Assembly: GCF_001677475.2 (NCBI RefSeq)
Contig: NZ_CP015229.1
DNA length: 64,000 bases
Reading direction: 5' to 3' (one strand)
Source of the DNA: Escherichia coli
Lineage (GTDB): Bacteria > Pseudomonadota > Gammaproteobacteria > Enterobacterales > Enterobacteriaceae
Part shown: piece by piece, positions 1 to 55,457 of the stretch
Layout of the letters: each line of letters opens with the position of its first letter
Numbering within the stretch: position 1 is the stretch's first letter
Notes under the pieces: model-generated
What the model saw: only the letters and a program-made list of their open reading frames with translations
Database searches by the model: none
Told to the model about the DNA's origin: nothing
Position numbers and translations under genes: made by a program

Positions 1-766
1 CAATGGTGCGCCCGCTGACTTTGGTCATTGCCGTACCAAATGGCTGGAAATCATTATTTTTGGTTTGGTCGACCAGAATGTTGCGATCGGCAAGGAACAG
101 AATGCGTTTTTTATTTTTTGATTTCCACAGGCGCCAGATGATCTGGAATGCGGTATAGGTTTTCCCTGTTCCGGTCGCCATTACCAGCAGAACACGGTTT
201 TGCCCGTTGGAGACGGCTTCTATGGTTTTGTTGATTGCCTGAAGCTGGTAATAACGTGGCGATTTACCGCTGCCATCGTCGTAATAGTCCTGAGTAATCA
301 CCGGAAGCTGAGCTTGTGTGTATCCTTTCCAGAGGCAGAATTTTTGCCAGAGTTCAGCGGGGGAGGGGAAGTCATCCAGCGTTATTTGCTTTTCAAGGCA
401 TTCACCTTCGGCTGCGGTAGCATCGCGGAAGATAAAGCCATCACCGTTGGTGGCAAAAACAAAAGGAACGTCCAGCAGGCGCGCGTATTCAATGCCCTGT
501 TGCATCCCTTTGCCAATTTCATGTTTGTTGGCTTTTGCTTCAATCACGGCTAAGGGAATGCCTGGTTTGTGATACAGCACGATGTCAGCAGATTTTACCG
601 TTCTGCGTGCCGCAACTTTACCACGTACGATGACTTTACCGTCCCGGAGTTTGACCTCCTGTCTGATTTGCGTTGTGTTGTCCCAGCCTGCATTGAGAAT
701 GGCTGGCATAACGCATTTGGTAATGATGTCTGCTTCCGTCAGGTTACTTAGGTTCAGTTCCGCCAT
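1..766 (-). CDS. hsdR: Type I restriction enzyme R subunit-like protein, N-terminal ~255 aa; gene continues beyond window start
   Basis: Own reverse-strand translation from ATG (complement 764-766) gives [18 protein letters not shown]... open to position 1; nuclease-like D..IEAK motif and helicase motif [15 protein letters not shown]; N-terminus differs from EcoKI HsdR as I recall it. Confidence 0.6.
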
Positions 767-906
767 GGGGTGTTCTCATCTAAATGCGATGCGCAAATTC
801 TACACAGAAAAATAGATGAATTCATCTGTTCAAAGAGTATTATCAGCGTTAAGTCACTGTTTTAAAGGTATTCTTGAGTTTCATCAATAGTAGGATAAGG
901 ATTCAT

Positions 907-1875
907 ATGGAGAATGTTCGGTTCTTGCAAGGAGTGAAACAATATTTTTGTACTAAGGCATTAGATGTCATTCTGCTAATTTATCTACTCCTTGGTTTTA
1001 TACTTCTCCCTTATAAATATCTGTGGAAAGATATTATTTTATCTCTGTGCTTTGTTGGTATTCTTCTTTATGCATTAGTGGAAGAAAATCGCATTACAGA
1101 ATATATGGGGTATTTTGTCAAGTTCAGTAATAAAAACAGTTTGAATAGTTGTGCTGCCTGGTGTTCACTTATTGCATGGTTTATATTTTTGTTTTTTGTG
1201 CTTTCAATTAATATTTTTCCAGTCAGTGTCTCTGTATACGTTTTTAGTGCTTTTTCAGTATTTGTTTTTCTGGGAGGTGTTTTTATTATATTAGAGTTGG
1301 AATTTAAAAATAATAAAAAATTAATGATTATTAGGTCTATGACTTTAGCTGTCATACCAATTATATATTTATTCTCAAGTAGTTTTTCTTCCAGTTTATT
1401 TTTAAGTTTGAGTAATCTAAATATCACACTATCACCATGGGTTGAGTATTTCTGGAAAGGGATGGCTTTTTTGTTTCTTTTCTTCATGTTAATGCAACTT
1501 ATTATCTATTTTACTTTTTTAACTCTGTGGGCTAAATTAAGTGTGTACAGGTTGTTTATACTTGCCGGAGCATTTATAGCATCTACTATTTTAGTGGTTT
1601 TTGCTTCAAAAAACGTAGAGAGTATTTCGTACTACGTTTTAAAAAGTACTATAGATTTTGAATGGCGCAGTCAGGTTAAATGTGGACAGTTGAATATTTC
1701 ACATCCGGATGAAAGGTATTTCGGGTTTAATACCGATAAATATACTGTATTTTATTCCAATAGAGAGGGTAAATGGGGGTTCAATGAGTTGAAATGTAAG
1801 AAAGGTTCTGACAGGAGAGATGCATATTCCATTGAGAATGTCTCAGAATATAACGTGCCAGGATGGCTGAAATAA
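907..1875 (+). CDS. Hypothetical polytopic membrane protein (about 7 predicted TM helices plus ~85 aa hydrophilic C-terminal domain); AT-rich orphan gene
   Basis: ORF track 874..1875 (TTG start); ATG at 907 with AAGGA-like RBS preferred; very low GC relative to flanks; occupies the slot where K-12 has mrr. Confidence 0.5.
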   Translation: MENVRFLQGVKQYFCTKALDVILLIYLLLGFILLPYKYLWKDIILSLCFVGILLYALVEENRITEYMGYFVKFSNKNSLNSCAAWCSLIAWFIFLFFVLSINIFPVSVSVYVFSAFSVFVFLGGVFIILELEFKNNKKLMIIRSMTLAVIPIIYLFSSSFSSSLFLSLSNLNITLSPWVEYFWKGMAFLFLFFMLMQLIIYFTFLTLWAKLSVYRLFILAGAFIASTILVVFASKNVESISYYVLKSTIDFEWRSQVKCGQLNISHPDERYFGFNTDKYTVFYSNREGKWGFNELKCKKGSDRRDAYSIENVSEYNVPGWLK

Positions 1876-1914
1876 GTTATCTTTATAATTAAATCGTAAA
1901 GGTTCTGGACATAA

Positions 1915-2106
1915 ATGAGCATGGTTAAACATAAACGGGGCACACTCTACACACTTGATGTGCAGCAAGAAGCTGAACTCAAGGCTTTGGTTAATAAATC
2001 CGACGATTATATTGATTACAGCGATATTCCTGCGTCTGGTAGCGATGCATGGGCTGACGCCAAACGCAGCAATTTTTTGCCAAATCCAGGTATTCACGCG
2101 CAATAA
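1915..2106 (+). CDS. Hypothetical small protein (63 aa)
   Basis: ORF track; ATG start; followed by hairpin at ~2115-2146 shared with convergent yjiA; no family recognised. Confidence 0.3.
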   Translation: MSMVKHKRGTLYTLDVQQEAELKALVNKSDDYIDYSDIPASGSDAWADAKRSNFLPNPGIHAQ

Positions 2107-2185: not shown

Positions 2186-3148
2186 TCACGCAGACTTCCT
2201 CAACCCCGCAAACGCCGCCCGAATCTCATCCTCCGGCAGCTGAATCCCGATAAACACCATCGTGCTATGCGGTTTTTCATCGCCCCACGGGCGGTCCCAG
2301 TCGGCGCTGTAGAGGCGCTGGACGCCCTGGAACAGCAGGCGGTTAGGTTCGCCGTCAATCCATAGCATCCCTTTGTAACGCAGCAGTTTATCCGCCGACT
2401 CCAGCAGCAGGTTTTCCATCACCCGGGAAACTTCGCTGATATCTACCGGGTAATCCAGTTCCACCACAATCGACGAAATATCGTTTTGTTTATCCGCGAT
2501 AAAGTGAAAACGTGGCTTGGTGCTGACGACGTTCTCTTCCAGCATAAAACCGTTGGTGTTGAACAGCAGGCCCAGGTCGATGTCGCCGTGGGTGACGGTG
2601 TAGACCGGTGCGCGGGCGTTGATGCGCGCCAGGCGTTCACGCAGTTTCTCTGCTTCGCCTGCGACGTCGGTTTTAGTCAGCAGAATACGGTCGGCGTAGC
2701 CAACCTGGGACTGGGCGATGGTGAACTGGTTCATCTGCTCATCGGCATGTACCGCATCCACCAGCGCAATCACGCCGTCCAGCAGGTAGCGCTGGCATAA
2801 AATCTCATGGGAGAAAAAGGTCTGAATAATCGGGCCGGGATCGGCCATGCCGGTGCATTCAATGACCAGACGGTCGAACTGAATATTGCCCTTGTCGAGA
2901 TTATCCAGCAGGTCGAGTAGCGCGTCTTCCAGCTCGTTGGAGCGCGAACAGCAGATGCAGCCGTTGGTCAGCGTTTTGATCTGCGTGGCGCGGTCGCCAA
3001 TCAGTTGATCATCAACGGAGACTTCGCCGAATTCGTTTTCAATCACGGCAATCTTGTAGCCGTGTTGTTCGTTAAGAATATGGCGCAACAGGGTGGTTTT
3101 GCCCGCGCCTAAAAAACCGGTGAGTAGGGTAACTGCAATCGGGTTCAT
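2186..3148 (-). CDS. yjiA: GTP-binding protein YjiA (CobW/P-loop GTPase family)
   Basis: ORF track 2186..3232; start set at internal Met giving MNPIAVTLLTGFLGAGKTTLL (Walker A), 318 aa as recalled for YjiA. Confidence 0.9.
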   Translation of the reverse strand: MNPIAVTLLTGFLGAGKTTLLRHILNEQHGYKIAVIENEFGEVSVDDQLIGDRATQIKTLTNGCICCSRSNELEDALLDLLDNLDKGNIQFDRLVIECTGMADPGPIIQTFFSHEILCQRYLLDGVIALVDAVHADEQMNQFTIAQSQVGYADRILLTKTDVAGEAEKLRERLARINARAPVYTVTHGDIDLGLLFNTNGFMLEENVVSTKPRFHFIADKQNDISSIVVELDYPVDISEVSRVMENLLLESADKLLRYKGMLWIDGEPNRLLFQGVQRLYSADWDRPWGDEKPHSTMVFIGIQLPEDEIRAAFAGLRKSA

Positions 3149-31764: not shown

Positions 31765-31851
31765 TGGTGCGAGGGGGGGGACTTGAACCCCCACGTCCGT
31801 AAGGACACTAACACCTGAAGCTAGCGCGTCTACCAATTCCGCCACCTTCGC
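31765..31851 (-). tRNA. leuV: tRNA-Leu (anticodon CAG)
   Basis: Reverse complement reads GCGAAGGTGGCGGAATTGGTAGACGCGCTAGCTTCAGGTGTTAGTGTCCTTACGGACGTGGGGGTTCAAGTCCCCCCCCTCGCACCA; encoded CCA. Confidence 0.95.
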
Positions 31852-31885: not shown

Positions 31886-31972
31886 TGGTGCGAGGGGGGG
31901 GACTTGAACCCCCACGTCCGTAAGAACACTAACACCTGAAGCTAGCGCGTCTACCAATTCCGCCACCTTCGC
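31886..31972 (-). tRNA. leuP: tRNA-Leu (anticodon CAG), one-base variant in variable arm
   Basis: Same 87-nt tRNA with aagaacac instead of aaggacac on plus strand. Confidence 0.95.
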
Positions 31973-32000: not shown

Positions 32001-32087
32001 TGGTGCGAGGGGGGGGACTTGAACCCCCACGTCCGTAAGGACACTAACACCTGAAGCTAGCGCGTCTACCAATTCCGCCACCTTCGC
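32001..32087 (-). tRNA. leuQ: tRNA-Leu (anticodon CAG)
   Basis: Third tandem copy identical to the first. Confidence 0.95.
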
Positions 32088-32192: not shown

Positions 32193-32387
<195 letters not shown>

Positions 32388-42952: not shown

Positions 42953-43229
42953 TTCTGCCATTCCGGGACGTTACACTGTTCAGGCACCTTATAAAACGGG
43001 TGCCGGGCGTGGAAACCCGGAATTCACCAAAGCGCACAACCGCGCTCTTGCGGTTTTTTTGTGTCATGAGCAGCATTACGCCCAAATTATGGTGGGGCGT
43101 GCAGGGCCAACTTCGGTTGGGCCGGGTTCTTTGGTGACCGGTATTTCCACCCCTGTACGTCTCACCACCAATAAGGTCGTGGAAAGCCTTGGTGGTGAGT
43201 TATTAAAAATCACCAAAGAGGCTGCCATC

Positions 43230-51294: not shown

Positions 51295-51594
51295 AAAAAT
51301 TCCTTAATACTGATAACTTGGCGCACTATACACACGTTCCTGAAGAAAGCTATAGTTTTTTGATGGGGTTGAAGATGGCTGGATGTCTAAAATAAACATT
51401 GCTTCATATGTTCAACTATGCGTTAATGATTGCGTCGGTTTGAAGAACAGACGATATACGAAGTAGTTTACTAAAGCAGTTCTCATTTCAGGTGTTATTC
51501 ACTTATTCCTTCTTTGAGTCTCTCCAATTAAGTACGAAGTCGTTTCTGTTATACAAGCCATTTATGCCGAAAGGCTCAAGTTAAGGAATGTAGA

Positions 51595-51810
51595 ATGTCA
51601 AATAAAATGACTGGTTTAGTAAAATGGTTTAACGCTGATAAAGGTTTTGGCTTTATTTCTCCTGTTGATGGTAGTAAAGATGTGTTTGTGCATTTTTCTG
51701 CGATTCAGAATGATAATTTTCGAACCTTATTTGAAGGTCAAAAGGTTACCTTCTCTGTAGAGAGTGGTGCTAAAGGTCCTGCAGCAGCAAATGTCATAAT
51801 TACTGATTAA
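51595..51810 (+). CDS. cspB: Cold-shock protein, CspB-like
   Basis: ORF track 71 aa; [38 protein letters not shown]; divergent from cspF as in Qin. Confidence 0.85.
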
Positions 51811-52093
51811 AATTAATAGTTTGTCTGTATACGATAACGAAGAAGGCTGATGCCTGAGTGGAGATACAGACAGAGTGGTGAATATTGGATCTCTTTAATA
51901 AATAGTAAGGAGATCCAATACATGAAACAATGGCCAGCATATTTGGCAATAACTTAATCAGGAAAAGTATGCTAACCATTGTGGTGAAGTGCAGGTTTGC
52001 TGCATGAATAGTTTTACAGCAGAAGCTAACTGCTAGCATAGCAAAACAAAGTGCGTAAGTGGATGACTCCCACAAAAAGCACCACAATATTAA

Positions 52094-54683: not shown

Positions 54684-55045
54684 ATTAATATTAAATCGGA
54701 TTATTTTTAGCGCTGAATGTGAAATTTAAATAAAAAGGACTCTTCCATGAGTCAAAATCCTTGAAATCTTAAGGGTAAGATAAAAGGTCATTAGACAGAA
54801 TGACACGTTTTATTAATAAATAAAGCTATTGTTTCATTCGTGTGTTTTTCTTTACAAAAGTAATCCTTGCTATGGTTGGTTAATCATGCGTTAATGGTGT
54901 TCTGGTTTGTTACAAAATTATCTGAAGCAGTCATTGTTATAATTTTATTATTTGTACCTCTTGAGATTTCCTTGTTGGTTTTTCTCTCTGATATTTTTTT
55001 CGGACCATTCTGCCCAAGGGCTAACTTCTTCAAAAGGTAATAATG

Positions 55046-55258
55046 ATGTCTAACAAAATGACTGGTTTAGTGAAATGGTTTAACCCTGAAAAAGGTTTTG
55101 GTTTCATCACGCCGAAAGATGGTAGCAAAGATGTGTTTGTCCATTTCTCAGCTATTCAGAGCAACGATTTCAAAACGTTAACTGAGAATCAGGAAGTCGA
55201 ATTTGGTATTGAGAACGGACCTAAAGGCCCCGCGGCTGTTCATGTTGTGGCACTTTGA
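55046..55258 (+). CDS. cspI: Cold-shock protein, CspI-like
   Basis: ORF track 55043..55258; [45 protein letters not shown]. Confidence 0.85.
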
Positions 55259-55457
55259 GGTAGAAAATATTACAAACCATATTCACTTTAGATGCCCGTG
55301 TTGCCATGGTTCTCAGTATAGAACATCATCTTTTGATGTTTCTGACAGGAATCCTTTCGGGGCAAAATGTATCTTTTGTAAATCAATGATGATTACATTT
55401 GATAATATTTCACAATACTTAAATGTTAGCCGTCTGTCGTTAGATTTAAGAAAGTGA
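55242..55457 (+). CDS. Hypothetical small zinc-ribbon protein overlapping cspI 3' end
   Basis: ORF track 55203..55457; internal Met gives [26 protein letters not shown]...CIFCKS. Confidence 0.3.

Follow-up and report, generated by a model that had tools for sequence, protein, structure and literature searches.

An uncharacterised seven-transmembrane protein of the hsdR–yjiA slot in Escherichia coli and its possible role at the point of phage genome entry

Inner-membrane superinfection-exclusion proteins are encoded by phages, with P22 SieA, T4 Imm and HK97 gp15 as examples; as generally described, they are single-gene, membrane-embedded, borne by mobile elements and devoid of cytoplasmic domains. 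Here, we analyse a gene of Escherichia coli whose product, hereafter X, shares these traits. It lies between hsdR and yjiA in a 64,000-nt stretch of contig NZ_CP015229.1 (assembly GCF_001677475.2), referred to as the window, and encodes a 322-aa protein with seven predicted transmembrane (TM) segments. The likeness to the exclusion proteins, which extends to the mode of action proposed below, is one of descriptions and not of compared sequences. X differs from them in being larger (seven TM segments plus a beta domain) and in being chromosomal or satellite-borne, with no match in PHROGs or in phage genomes.

In K-12, the gene that occupies the slot between hsdR and yjiA is mrr. Mrr and GmrSD are cytoplasmic nucleases unrelated to X, which is a membrane protein without a nuclease or nucleotide-binding domain. 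However, X occupies the same hsdR–yjiA slot, is divergent from hsdR and is mutually exclusive with these enzymes, the cassette boundary being no more than about 10 nt away from the start codon of hsdR. The slot belongs to the immigration control region, which is bounded by yjiA and is listed as defence hotspot #36 (PMC12707154), so that the view of an earlier note on this DNA, namely that the surroundings of hsdR are a hotspot for anti-phage genes, is well founded. A second point of comparison is provided by P4-like satellites, in which the interval between psu and int is a hotspot of anti-phage systems (Rousset et al., PMC9122126). At leuX, X homologues immediately follow a P4-type integrase, and one IMG/VR contig holds a further homologue, but the systems that Rousset et al. 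describe do not include X, several of the integrase–X islands lack psu, sid and delta, and the integrase–X linkage is persistent, unlike that of freely swapped cargo. Lastly, Zorya ZorAB, Kiwa KwaA, RexB and the TM effectors of CBASS and Pycsar resemble X in their membrane location within defence islands, and Zorya or ZorD-like genes are neighbours of X in three loci; these are multi-gene systems, whereas X is partnerless and matches no PADLOC model. Known membrane families (Abi/CAAX, acyltransferase-3, Wzy/WaaL, MFS and others) show neither a Pfam-A or NCBIfam profile match nor a fold match to X.

We find that X is a single-gene cargo of enterobacterial defence hotspots and a genuine, horizontally acquired gene kept by purifying selection. 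We propose tentatively, with a probability of roughly 0.3, that it acts as a stand-alone barrier, facing the periplasm, to the entry of phage genomes. The anatomy, the evolution and the BrnA remnant described below, taken jointly, are held with high confidence.

Anatomy, family and selection of X

The earlier note had described an AT-rich protein of about 322 aa in the hsdR–yjiA slot, with about seven TM segments and a hydrophilic C-terminal domain. The open reading frame (ORF), its GC content, its hydropathy and a structural model all agree with this description. The relevant features are the following:

907–1875, plus strand: X, inner-membrane protein of 322 aa with seven TM segments, N-in/C-out, member of an uncharacterised family of Enterobacterales (ORF, RefSeq annotation, homologues and model)
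1405–1455, plus strand: predicted periplasmic loop between TM5 and TM6, residues 167–183, motif SNLxISxSPW with an invariant P177 (family alignment)
1660–1872, plus strand: predicted C-terminal periplasmic beta domain, residues 252–322, six-stranded antiparallel sheet, aromatic-rich, with invariant E252, W253, C259, Y271, F292 and C297

Two starts are available to the ORF, a TTG at 874 (333 aa) and an ATG at 907 (322 aa). The latter is the more plausible, since it is preceded 5 nt upstream by the motif AAGGA and since RefSeq annotates the 322-aa form.

Hydropathy delineates seven TM segments in X. Family-wide, the mean number of Lys and Arg residues is 12.2 for the N-terminus together with loops 2–3, 4–5 and 6–7 versus 1.2 for loops 1–2, 3–4 and 5–6, and this strong positive-inside signal places the N-terminus in the cytoplasm and the C-terminus in the periplasm. 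AlphaFold 2 with the family alignment yields a confident model (predicted local distance difference test, pLDDT, 85.5; predicted TM-score, pTM, 0.74), in which a helical membrane domain leads through a linker helix to a six-stranded beta domain. Conservation is highest in this C-terminal domain (E252, W253, C259, G260, Y271–F274, K278, Y279, W290–F292, E294, C297 and W320), and next highest in loop 5–6, which holds the SNLxISxSPW motif, has a majority fraction of 0.59 and contains almost no Lys or Arg, while the TM helices and the cytoplasmic loops vary freely across the family alignment. In this topology, both of the best-conserved parts, i.e., loop 5–6 and the C-terminal beta domain of about 70 aa, are predicted to face the periplasm, and X would have no cytoplasmic domain. 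The sole conserved cysteines, C259 (nt 1681–1683) and C297 (nt 1795–1797), both belong to the C-terminal domain, are invariant in 22 of 22 sequences and probably form a periplasmic disulfide.

Pfam, NCBIfam, PADLOC and PHROGs contain nothing that matches X, and PADLOC-DB v2.0 gives no hit even at E ≤ 1, in line with the absence of a recognisable family reported in the earlier note. Pfam applied to 22 family members likewise returns nothing at E ≤ 0.001 and only three chance-level hits with E > 0.01. HMMER, run exhaustively against 1.84 billion representatives, gives 29 X clusters, and word-indexed searches of 5.8 billion proteins give 28 with the X sequence and 33 with the family profile. None of these clusters, about 30 in number, carries a name or a Pfam domain, and all named members are Enterobacterales. 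With one genome taken per species, X is present in 11 of 100,044 species, from Escherichia, Enterobacter, Pantoea, Atlantibacter, Lonsdalea, Proteus and Providencia, the Escherichia entry being a contaminated genome labelled 'Bacillota'; protein searches add Salmonella, Pectobacterium and Erwinia, and the fold search adds Photorhabdus. Foldseek comparison of the model with AFDB50 returns uncharacterised proteins only, which are family members, the weaker matches (TM-score of about 0.5) being uncharacterised proteins of about 300 aa from Pseudomonas and other genera. Two sequence-profile matches in the PDB, to SecY (E about 1) and to a 25-residue stretch of a MIR domain (E 0.044), were discarded as not significant. 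In the literature, the RefSeq and UniProt accessions of X are mentioned in no paper. X has no detectable membership in a described family, system or fold; its setting and the category of membrane-level defence are already known.

Full-length X orthologues are 310–331 aa long and intact. Among four E. coli alleles, the ratio of nonsynonymous to synonymous substitution rates (dN/dS) is 0.18–0.35 overall and 0.09–0.22 for the C-terminal domain in five of the six pairs, the value of 0.48 for the sixth pair resulting from three substitutions. Alleles of X differ by up to about 6% at the nucleotide level, and the adjoining 5' end of hsdR by at most 1.3%. As stated above, we take X to be under purifying selection.

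Genomic contexts of X

X and the EcoAI-type hsdR were searched for in 5426 complete E. coli genomes; the earlier note had proposed a comparison of the hsdR–yjiA interval across such genomes. An EcoAI-type hsdR is present in 1079 of these genomes and X in 441 (about 8%), at a coverage of at least 80% in 409 of the latter; in at least 400 of these 409, X is contiguous with an EcoAI-type hsdR. In the roughly 640 EcoAI-type genomes without X, homology ends about 10 nt past the hsdR start codon, and in the two that were examined, O157:H7 and ECONIH2, the slot holds a DUF262/HNH (GmrSD-type) type IV restriction gene. Since the slot is filled by X in some genomes and by Mrr or GmrSD in others, X can be regarded as an allele, by position, of these type IV restriction enzymes. 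The GmrSD-type gene is one ORF of 1653 nt in ECONIH2 (L030, 6545–8197); in O157:H7 JEONG-1266 (L029, 6545–8196) it is split into a 285-nt DUF262 ORF and a 1359-nt HNH ORF, and this copy is probably inactivated.

The Salmonella X locus has the order hsdR(IB)–X–yjiA. Its upstream homology to the window continues to about 880, so the type IB hsd genes and X travel together. Other occupants of the slot are mrr with brnTA in another Salmonella locus (L024) and an Mrr-catalytic-domain gene with brnTA in Pseudocitrobacter. The order hsdR(IB)–X–brnA'–yjiA, at 97% identity to the window, also appears in JAEWTL010000091.1 (L013), labelled 'MAG: Bacillota bacterium'; this contig almost certainly comes from E. 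coli and was mis-binned into a Bacillota metagenome-assembled genome (MAG).

The second chromosomal setting of X is the leuX hotspot, hotspot #37 (PMC12707154). In five loci, X comes directly behind tRNA-Leu(CAA) and a P4-type integrase gene, with a spacing of about 50 nt where intact; the hosts are Pectobacterium, Lonsdalea, two Enterobacter-like genomes and metagenome strains, and a degraded copy exists in Providencia (L023). Cargo near X in these islands includes HigBA-like, RelE/MqsA-like, PDC-S35 TIR, OLD-like, FRG and AlpA/Ash/primase genes, and no nuclease gene adjoins X. In L007 (6433–8948), only a 48-aa ORF, the integrase gene and X separate leuX from the core genes. An identical module of 48-aa ORF, integrase and X is present in L008 (6555–8948), with the same core genes on its 3' side and with RloB/AAA_21, resolvase and helix-turn-helix genes, but no tRNA, on its 5' side. 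The L007/L008 module resembles either a minimal integrase–X island or one end of a larger island that has otherwise been lost. A search for tRNA-Leu 3'-end repeats that could mark the limits of a minimal island gave none near X; the only repeat, of 15 nt, is about 10 kb downstream in L015. The linkage is kept across integrases that are only 64% identical, and X diverges faster than the linked integrase: where the integrases are 96% identical, the X proteins share 71%.

X is also carried by a P4-like satellite contig from IMG/VR, which encodes Psu, AlpA, a repressor, an alpha primase and an integrase, then X, then PDC-S02 and a split ZorD/DpdE-like helicase-nuclease. Apart from this one satellite contig, X was not found to be encoded by a phage or prophage (INPHARED and PHROGs), and it is essentially absent from plasmids. 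Elsewhere, a ZorD/DpdE-like gene lies near X in Pantoea coffeiphila; one locus has Zorya zorB, zorC and zorD, followed by a 5'-nucleotidase gene and X; the Atlantibacter X has a phosphorothioate-dependent restriction enzyme and a DndH/mad8-like protein as neighbours; and in Proteus penneri, X is next to a type I hsdR, with leuX 7 kb away. A ZorD/DpdE-like SNF2 helicase-nuclease gene is found one to three genes from divergent X homologues (24–31% identical to the window protein) in three loci, namely L017 (1813–5055), L032 (11364–12455 and 12582–14609, the gene being split in two ORFs) and L035 (9826–14936, within a canonical Zorya zorB–zorC–zorD cluster); this proximity could be due to island chance or to a functional link.

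Judged by recurrence, X belongs to defence islands: its homologues lie beside known defence genes in independent contexts, which comprise type IB or type I restriction–modification (E. coli, Salmonella and Proteus), leuX islands with TIR, OLD-like and toxin–antitoxin genes, ZorD/DpdE-like genes (L017 and L032), Zorya (L035) and phosphorothioate-dependent restriction (L018). No gene other than the integrase of the leuX subset is a conserved partner of X across these contexts. Positional allelism with Mrr and GmrSD and the recurrent defence neighbours strengthen the idea of the earlier note that X is involved in defence, and they make it a candidate defence gene.

The 63-aa ORF and the surroundings of X

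Next to X, the window contains a 63-aa ORF that the earlier note had counted, together with X, as an orphan of the slot. The ORF does exist and the other features of the locus are arranged around it as follows:

1–768, minus strand: 5' part of hsdR (EcoAI/type IB restriction subunit), start codon 766–768; the gene extends beyond the window edge
769–906, strandless: divergent hsdR–X spacer, 138 nt, GC 0.333, holding the Shine–Dalgarno sequence AAGGA (897–901) for X
1915–2106, plus strand: brnA' remnant, the 63-aa ORF, with about 55 N-terminal BrnA codons and 8 unrelated codons (homology to BrnA)
2186–3142 (3232), minus strand: yjiA GTPase, conserved anchor on the right-hand side of the immigration control region (PMC12707154); ORF, with 99.4% aa identity to RefSeq yjiA

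Contrary to the claim that this ORF has no recognisable family, its residues 1–55 are 60–69% identical to 100-aa BrnA (PF14384) proteins, with E values down to 1e-15 in the search of 5.8 billion proteins. Salmonella, Klebsiella, Citrobacter and Kosakonia are among the source genera, and 24 invariant positions are common to the ORF and the 100-aa proteins. The alignment shows that the ORF leaves BrnA after residue 55, about 45 C-terminal residues being gone. Pfam gives no hit for the 63-aa product even at E ≤ 10, the region that Pfam matches being the lost C-terminal part, and no family of PADLOC-DB v2.0 matches it at E ≤ 1.

The DNA tells the same story, since homology to intact brnA is confined to the segment from 1915, exactly the brnA ATG, to about 2078. 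In intact loci, brnT overlaps brnA by 14 nt, whereas in the window brnT is gone and X lies upstream instead. An intact brnT–brnA pair abuts yjiA in Salmonella and Pseudocitrobacter (in the order hsdR/mrr, brnT, brnA, yjiA) and in E. coli SF-166, and this intact form, at about 77% nt identity, occurs in about 2100 of the 5426 complete E. coli genomes; brnAT is named among the toxin–antitoxin systems of the immigration control region (EcoSal review, PMC12707154). In comparison with the BrnT/BrnA system (PF04365/PF14384), the 63-aa ORF thus keeps the homology over residues 1–55 and the site abutting yjiA but lacks the C-terminal residues and the upstream brnT. The truncation, the loss of brnT and the absence of the ORF from the Salmonella X locus identify it as a decayed brnT–brnA resident of the slot, unrelated to X and not a working module. 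A two-gene system made of X and the 63-aa ORF was considered and rejected, because Salmonella has X but not the ORF and because the ORF is a piece of brnA whose distribution is separate and wider. Consequently, the ORF is neither an orphan, as in the earlier note, nor a partner of X. The identification removes a false two-gene hypothesis and documents cassette replacement in the immigration control region.

The left breakpoint of the cassette is located at about 777, where homology to genomes with the GmrSD allele ends, and the hsdR segment is 98.7–99% identical at the nucleotide level to genes that RefSeq calls 'EcoAI/FtnUII family type I restriction enzyme subunit R'. In near-identical E. 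coli loci, the RefSeq labels are 'hypothetical protein' for the 322-aa product and 'antitoxin' for the 63-aa one. The GC content is 0.315 for X (0.29 at third codon positions, GC3), 0.443 for the 63-aa ORF, 0.49 for hsdR and 0.556 for yjiA (GC3 0.70), so that the 63-aa ORF is only mildly low and not, as the earlier note had it, far below its flanks. Past brnA' come the convergent yjiA and then yjiX, btsT and hpa genes. Between 600 and 2400 there is no Rfam RNA, meaningful repeat or insertion sequence (IS) scar. A GC-rich hairpin at 2115–2143 was set aside because it scores no better than shuffled sequence (z -0.9).

Further along the window, three tandem tRNA genes lie on the minus strand (31768–31851, 31889–31972 and 32004–32087), with a match to naRNA4 (CssrE) at 32227–32309. 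Adjacent matches to isrK and C4 antisense RNA (42984–43172) are followed by two cspA-type thermoregulator leaders (51434–51873 and 54889–55304), which suggests a prophage or an element bearing cold-shock genes in the distal third of the window.

Proposed function of X and rival explanations

Because X has no conserved partner, has no cytoplasmic sensor or effector domain and has its conserved parts on the periplasmic side, we propose that it would work unaided at the inner membrane's outer face. It may interfere there with the delivery of phage genomes, or of other invading macromolecules, across the membrane; its mode would be an entry block of the superinfection-exclusion kind rather than intracellular abortive infection. 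A stronger form of this proposal, possible but more doubtful, is that X is the founder of a new class of single-protein inner-membrane anti-phage factors with an unseen fold (seven TM segments plus a disulfide-bonded periplasmic beta domain) that stops genome delivery at the periplasmic face. Such a class would fit both the swapping of X with Mrr and GmrSD and its place as integrase-proximal cargo of leuX islands and satellites. In a bolder variant, X could mark the site of DNA entry for neighbouring helicase-nucleases such as HsdR or ZorD-like proteins.

Several observations weigh against an entry block. Classical superinfection-exclusion genes are phage-borne, unlike X, and tblastn with three divergent queries finds no homologue in 50,697 phage records (INPHARED). 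Profile and fold searches reveal no similarity to characterised exclusion, abortive-infection or defence proteins. No plus-strand sigma-70 consensus upstream of X and no terminator was found in 600–2400, no promoter is obvious, and the AT-rich composition of X suggests possible silencing by H-NS. In 32 of the 441 E. coli copies, coverage of the gene is below 80%, in some of them through truncation, and IS1 or IS5 interrupts further ones, which indicates that X is dispensable; disrupted or 3'-only copies are seen in E. coli hits H11–H13, H38, H54–H56, H72 and H73. The flanks examined in Enterobacter asburiae and Pantoea agglomerans contain no recognised defence gene. In Erwinia aphidicola (L033, 8776–11048), the X homologue is adjoined by symE and a cluster of Hcp, a 174-aa ORF and a Tlde1-domain protein, a type VI secretion system (T6SS) L,D-transpeptidase effector module; this Hcp–Tlde1 module, 1.7 kb from X, is antibacterial cargo in the same island. 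Islands between LptG and YjiA are indeed 'multi-conflict', mixing defence with T6SS, colicin and contact-dependent inhibition (CDI) cargo (bioRxiv 10.1101/2024.01.28.577318).

Among the alternatives, the one that fares best, although rather unlikely, is that X is an accessory membrane protein for transport, stress or another task, without a role in conflict, which hitch-hikes in recombination hotspots. The frequent disruption of X and the two contexts devoid of a recognised defence neighbour speak for it, and such hotspots also carry non-defence genes, e.g., those for an aldehyde dehydrogenase and transporters (PMC12707154). However, X recurs independently in two hotspots and a satellite, always as the gene of a variable slot, it is under purifying selection, it replaces type IV restriction enzymes exactly in position, and no transporter-like fold was found for it.

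X might instead be a membrane sensor or effector of the abortive-infection type, which would detect an envelope perturbation or a phage protein and depolarise or permeabilise the cell, alone or with the neighbouring nucleases. This we consider unlikely. The defence-hotspot setting agrees with it, as does the recurrence of X by superfamily 2 (SF2) helicase-nucleases, i.e., HsdR in E. coli, Salmonella and Proteus, ZorD/DpdE-like proteins in L017 and L032, and Zorya in L035; moreover, the TM proteins of known systems are usually suicide effectors (PMC9122126). But X offers no cytoplasmic domain with which to sense infection or receive a signal, its conserved surfaces are periplasmic, it has no conserved partner, its leuX-island copies have no adjacent nuclease, and the known TM effectors in PADLOC do not match it.

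An orphan immunity protein, protecting against a periplasm- or membrane-acting antibacterial toxin (a colicin, a T6SS or a CDI effector) within a multi-conflict island, is again improbable. The conserved periplasmic domain could bind a toxin in that compartment, and X diverges fast relative to its linked integrase, in addition to the mixed cargo of the LptG–YjiA islands (10.1101/2024.01.28.577318) and the Hcp–Tlde1 module near the Erwinia homologue. Nevertheless, no toxin gene or remnant adjoins X in about 12 contexts, its neighbours are mostly anti-phage genes, and the Erwinia effector is separated from X by symE and has a candidate immunity ORF of its own.

Lastly, a polytopic envelope-modifying or glycan-handling protein that alters a phage-receptor surface structure, placed by prophage integrases like the serotype-converting gtr and oac genes, is very improbable: X does follow an integrase directly, has the very low GC also typical of O-antigen processing genes, carries an aromatic-rich periplasmic beta domain that could bind sugars and gives the sub-threshold MIR match, which is to a protein O-mannosyltransferase, but that match is not significant, gtrA/gtrB-like partners are absent nearby, and there is no Pfam or fold match to the acyltransferase-3, GtrC, Wzy, WaaL or GT-C families.

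Whatever its activity, X occurs in about 8% of the complete E. coli genomes, O26-type enterohaemorrhagic lineages among them, and in many Salmonella; it is nevertheless unannotated, belongs to no known family and has neither a solved nor a recognisable fold. It resides in the two most heavily used enterobacterial defence hotspots, it swaps with classical restriction enzymes, and among the many uncharacterised genes of defence islands it stands out as a small protein of unusual, periplasm-facing predicted architecture that replaces Mrr and GmrSD exactly and occurs in both major hotspots as well as in a satellite. Should X prove to be a true defence gene, a locus regarded as purely DNA-directed would gain a single-gene mechanism that acts at the level of the envelope.

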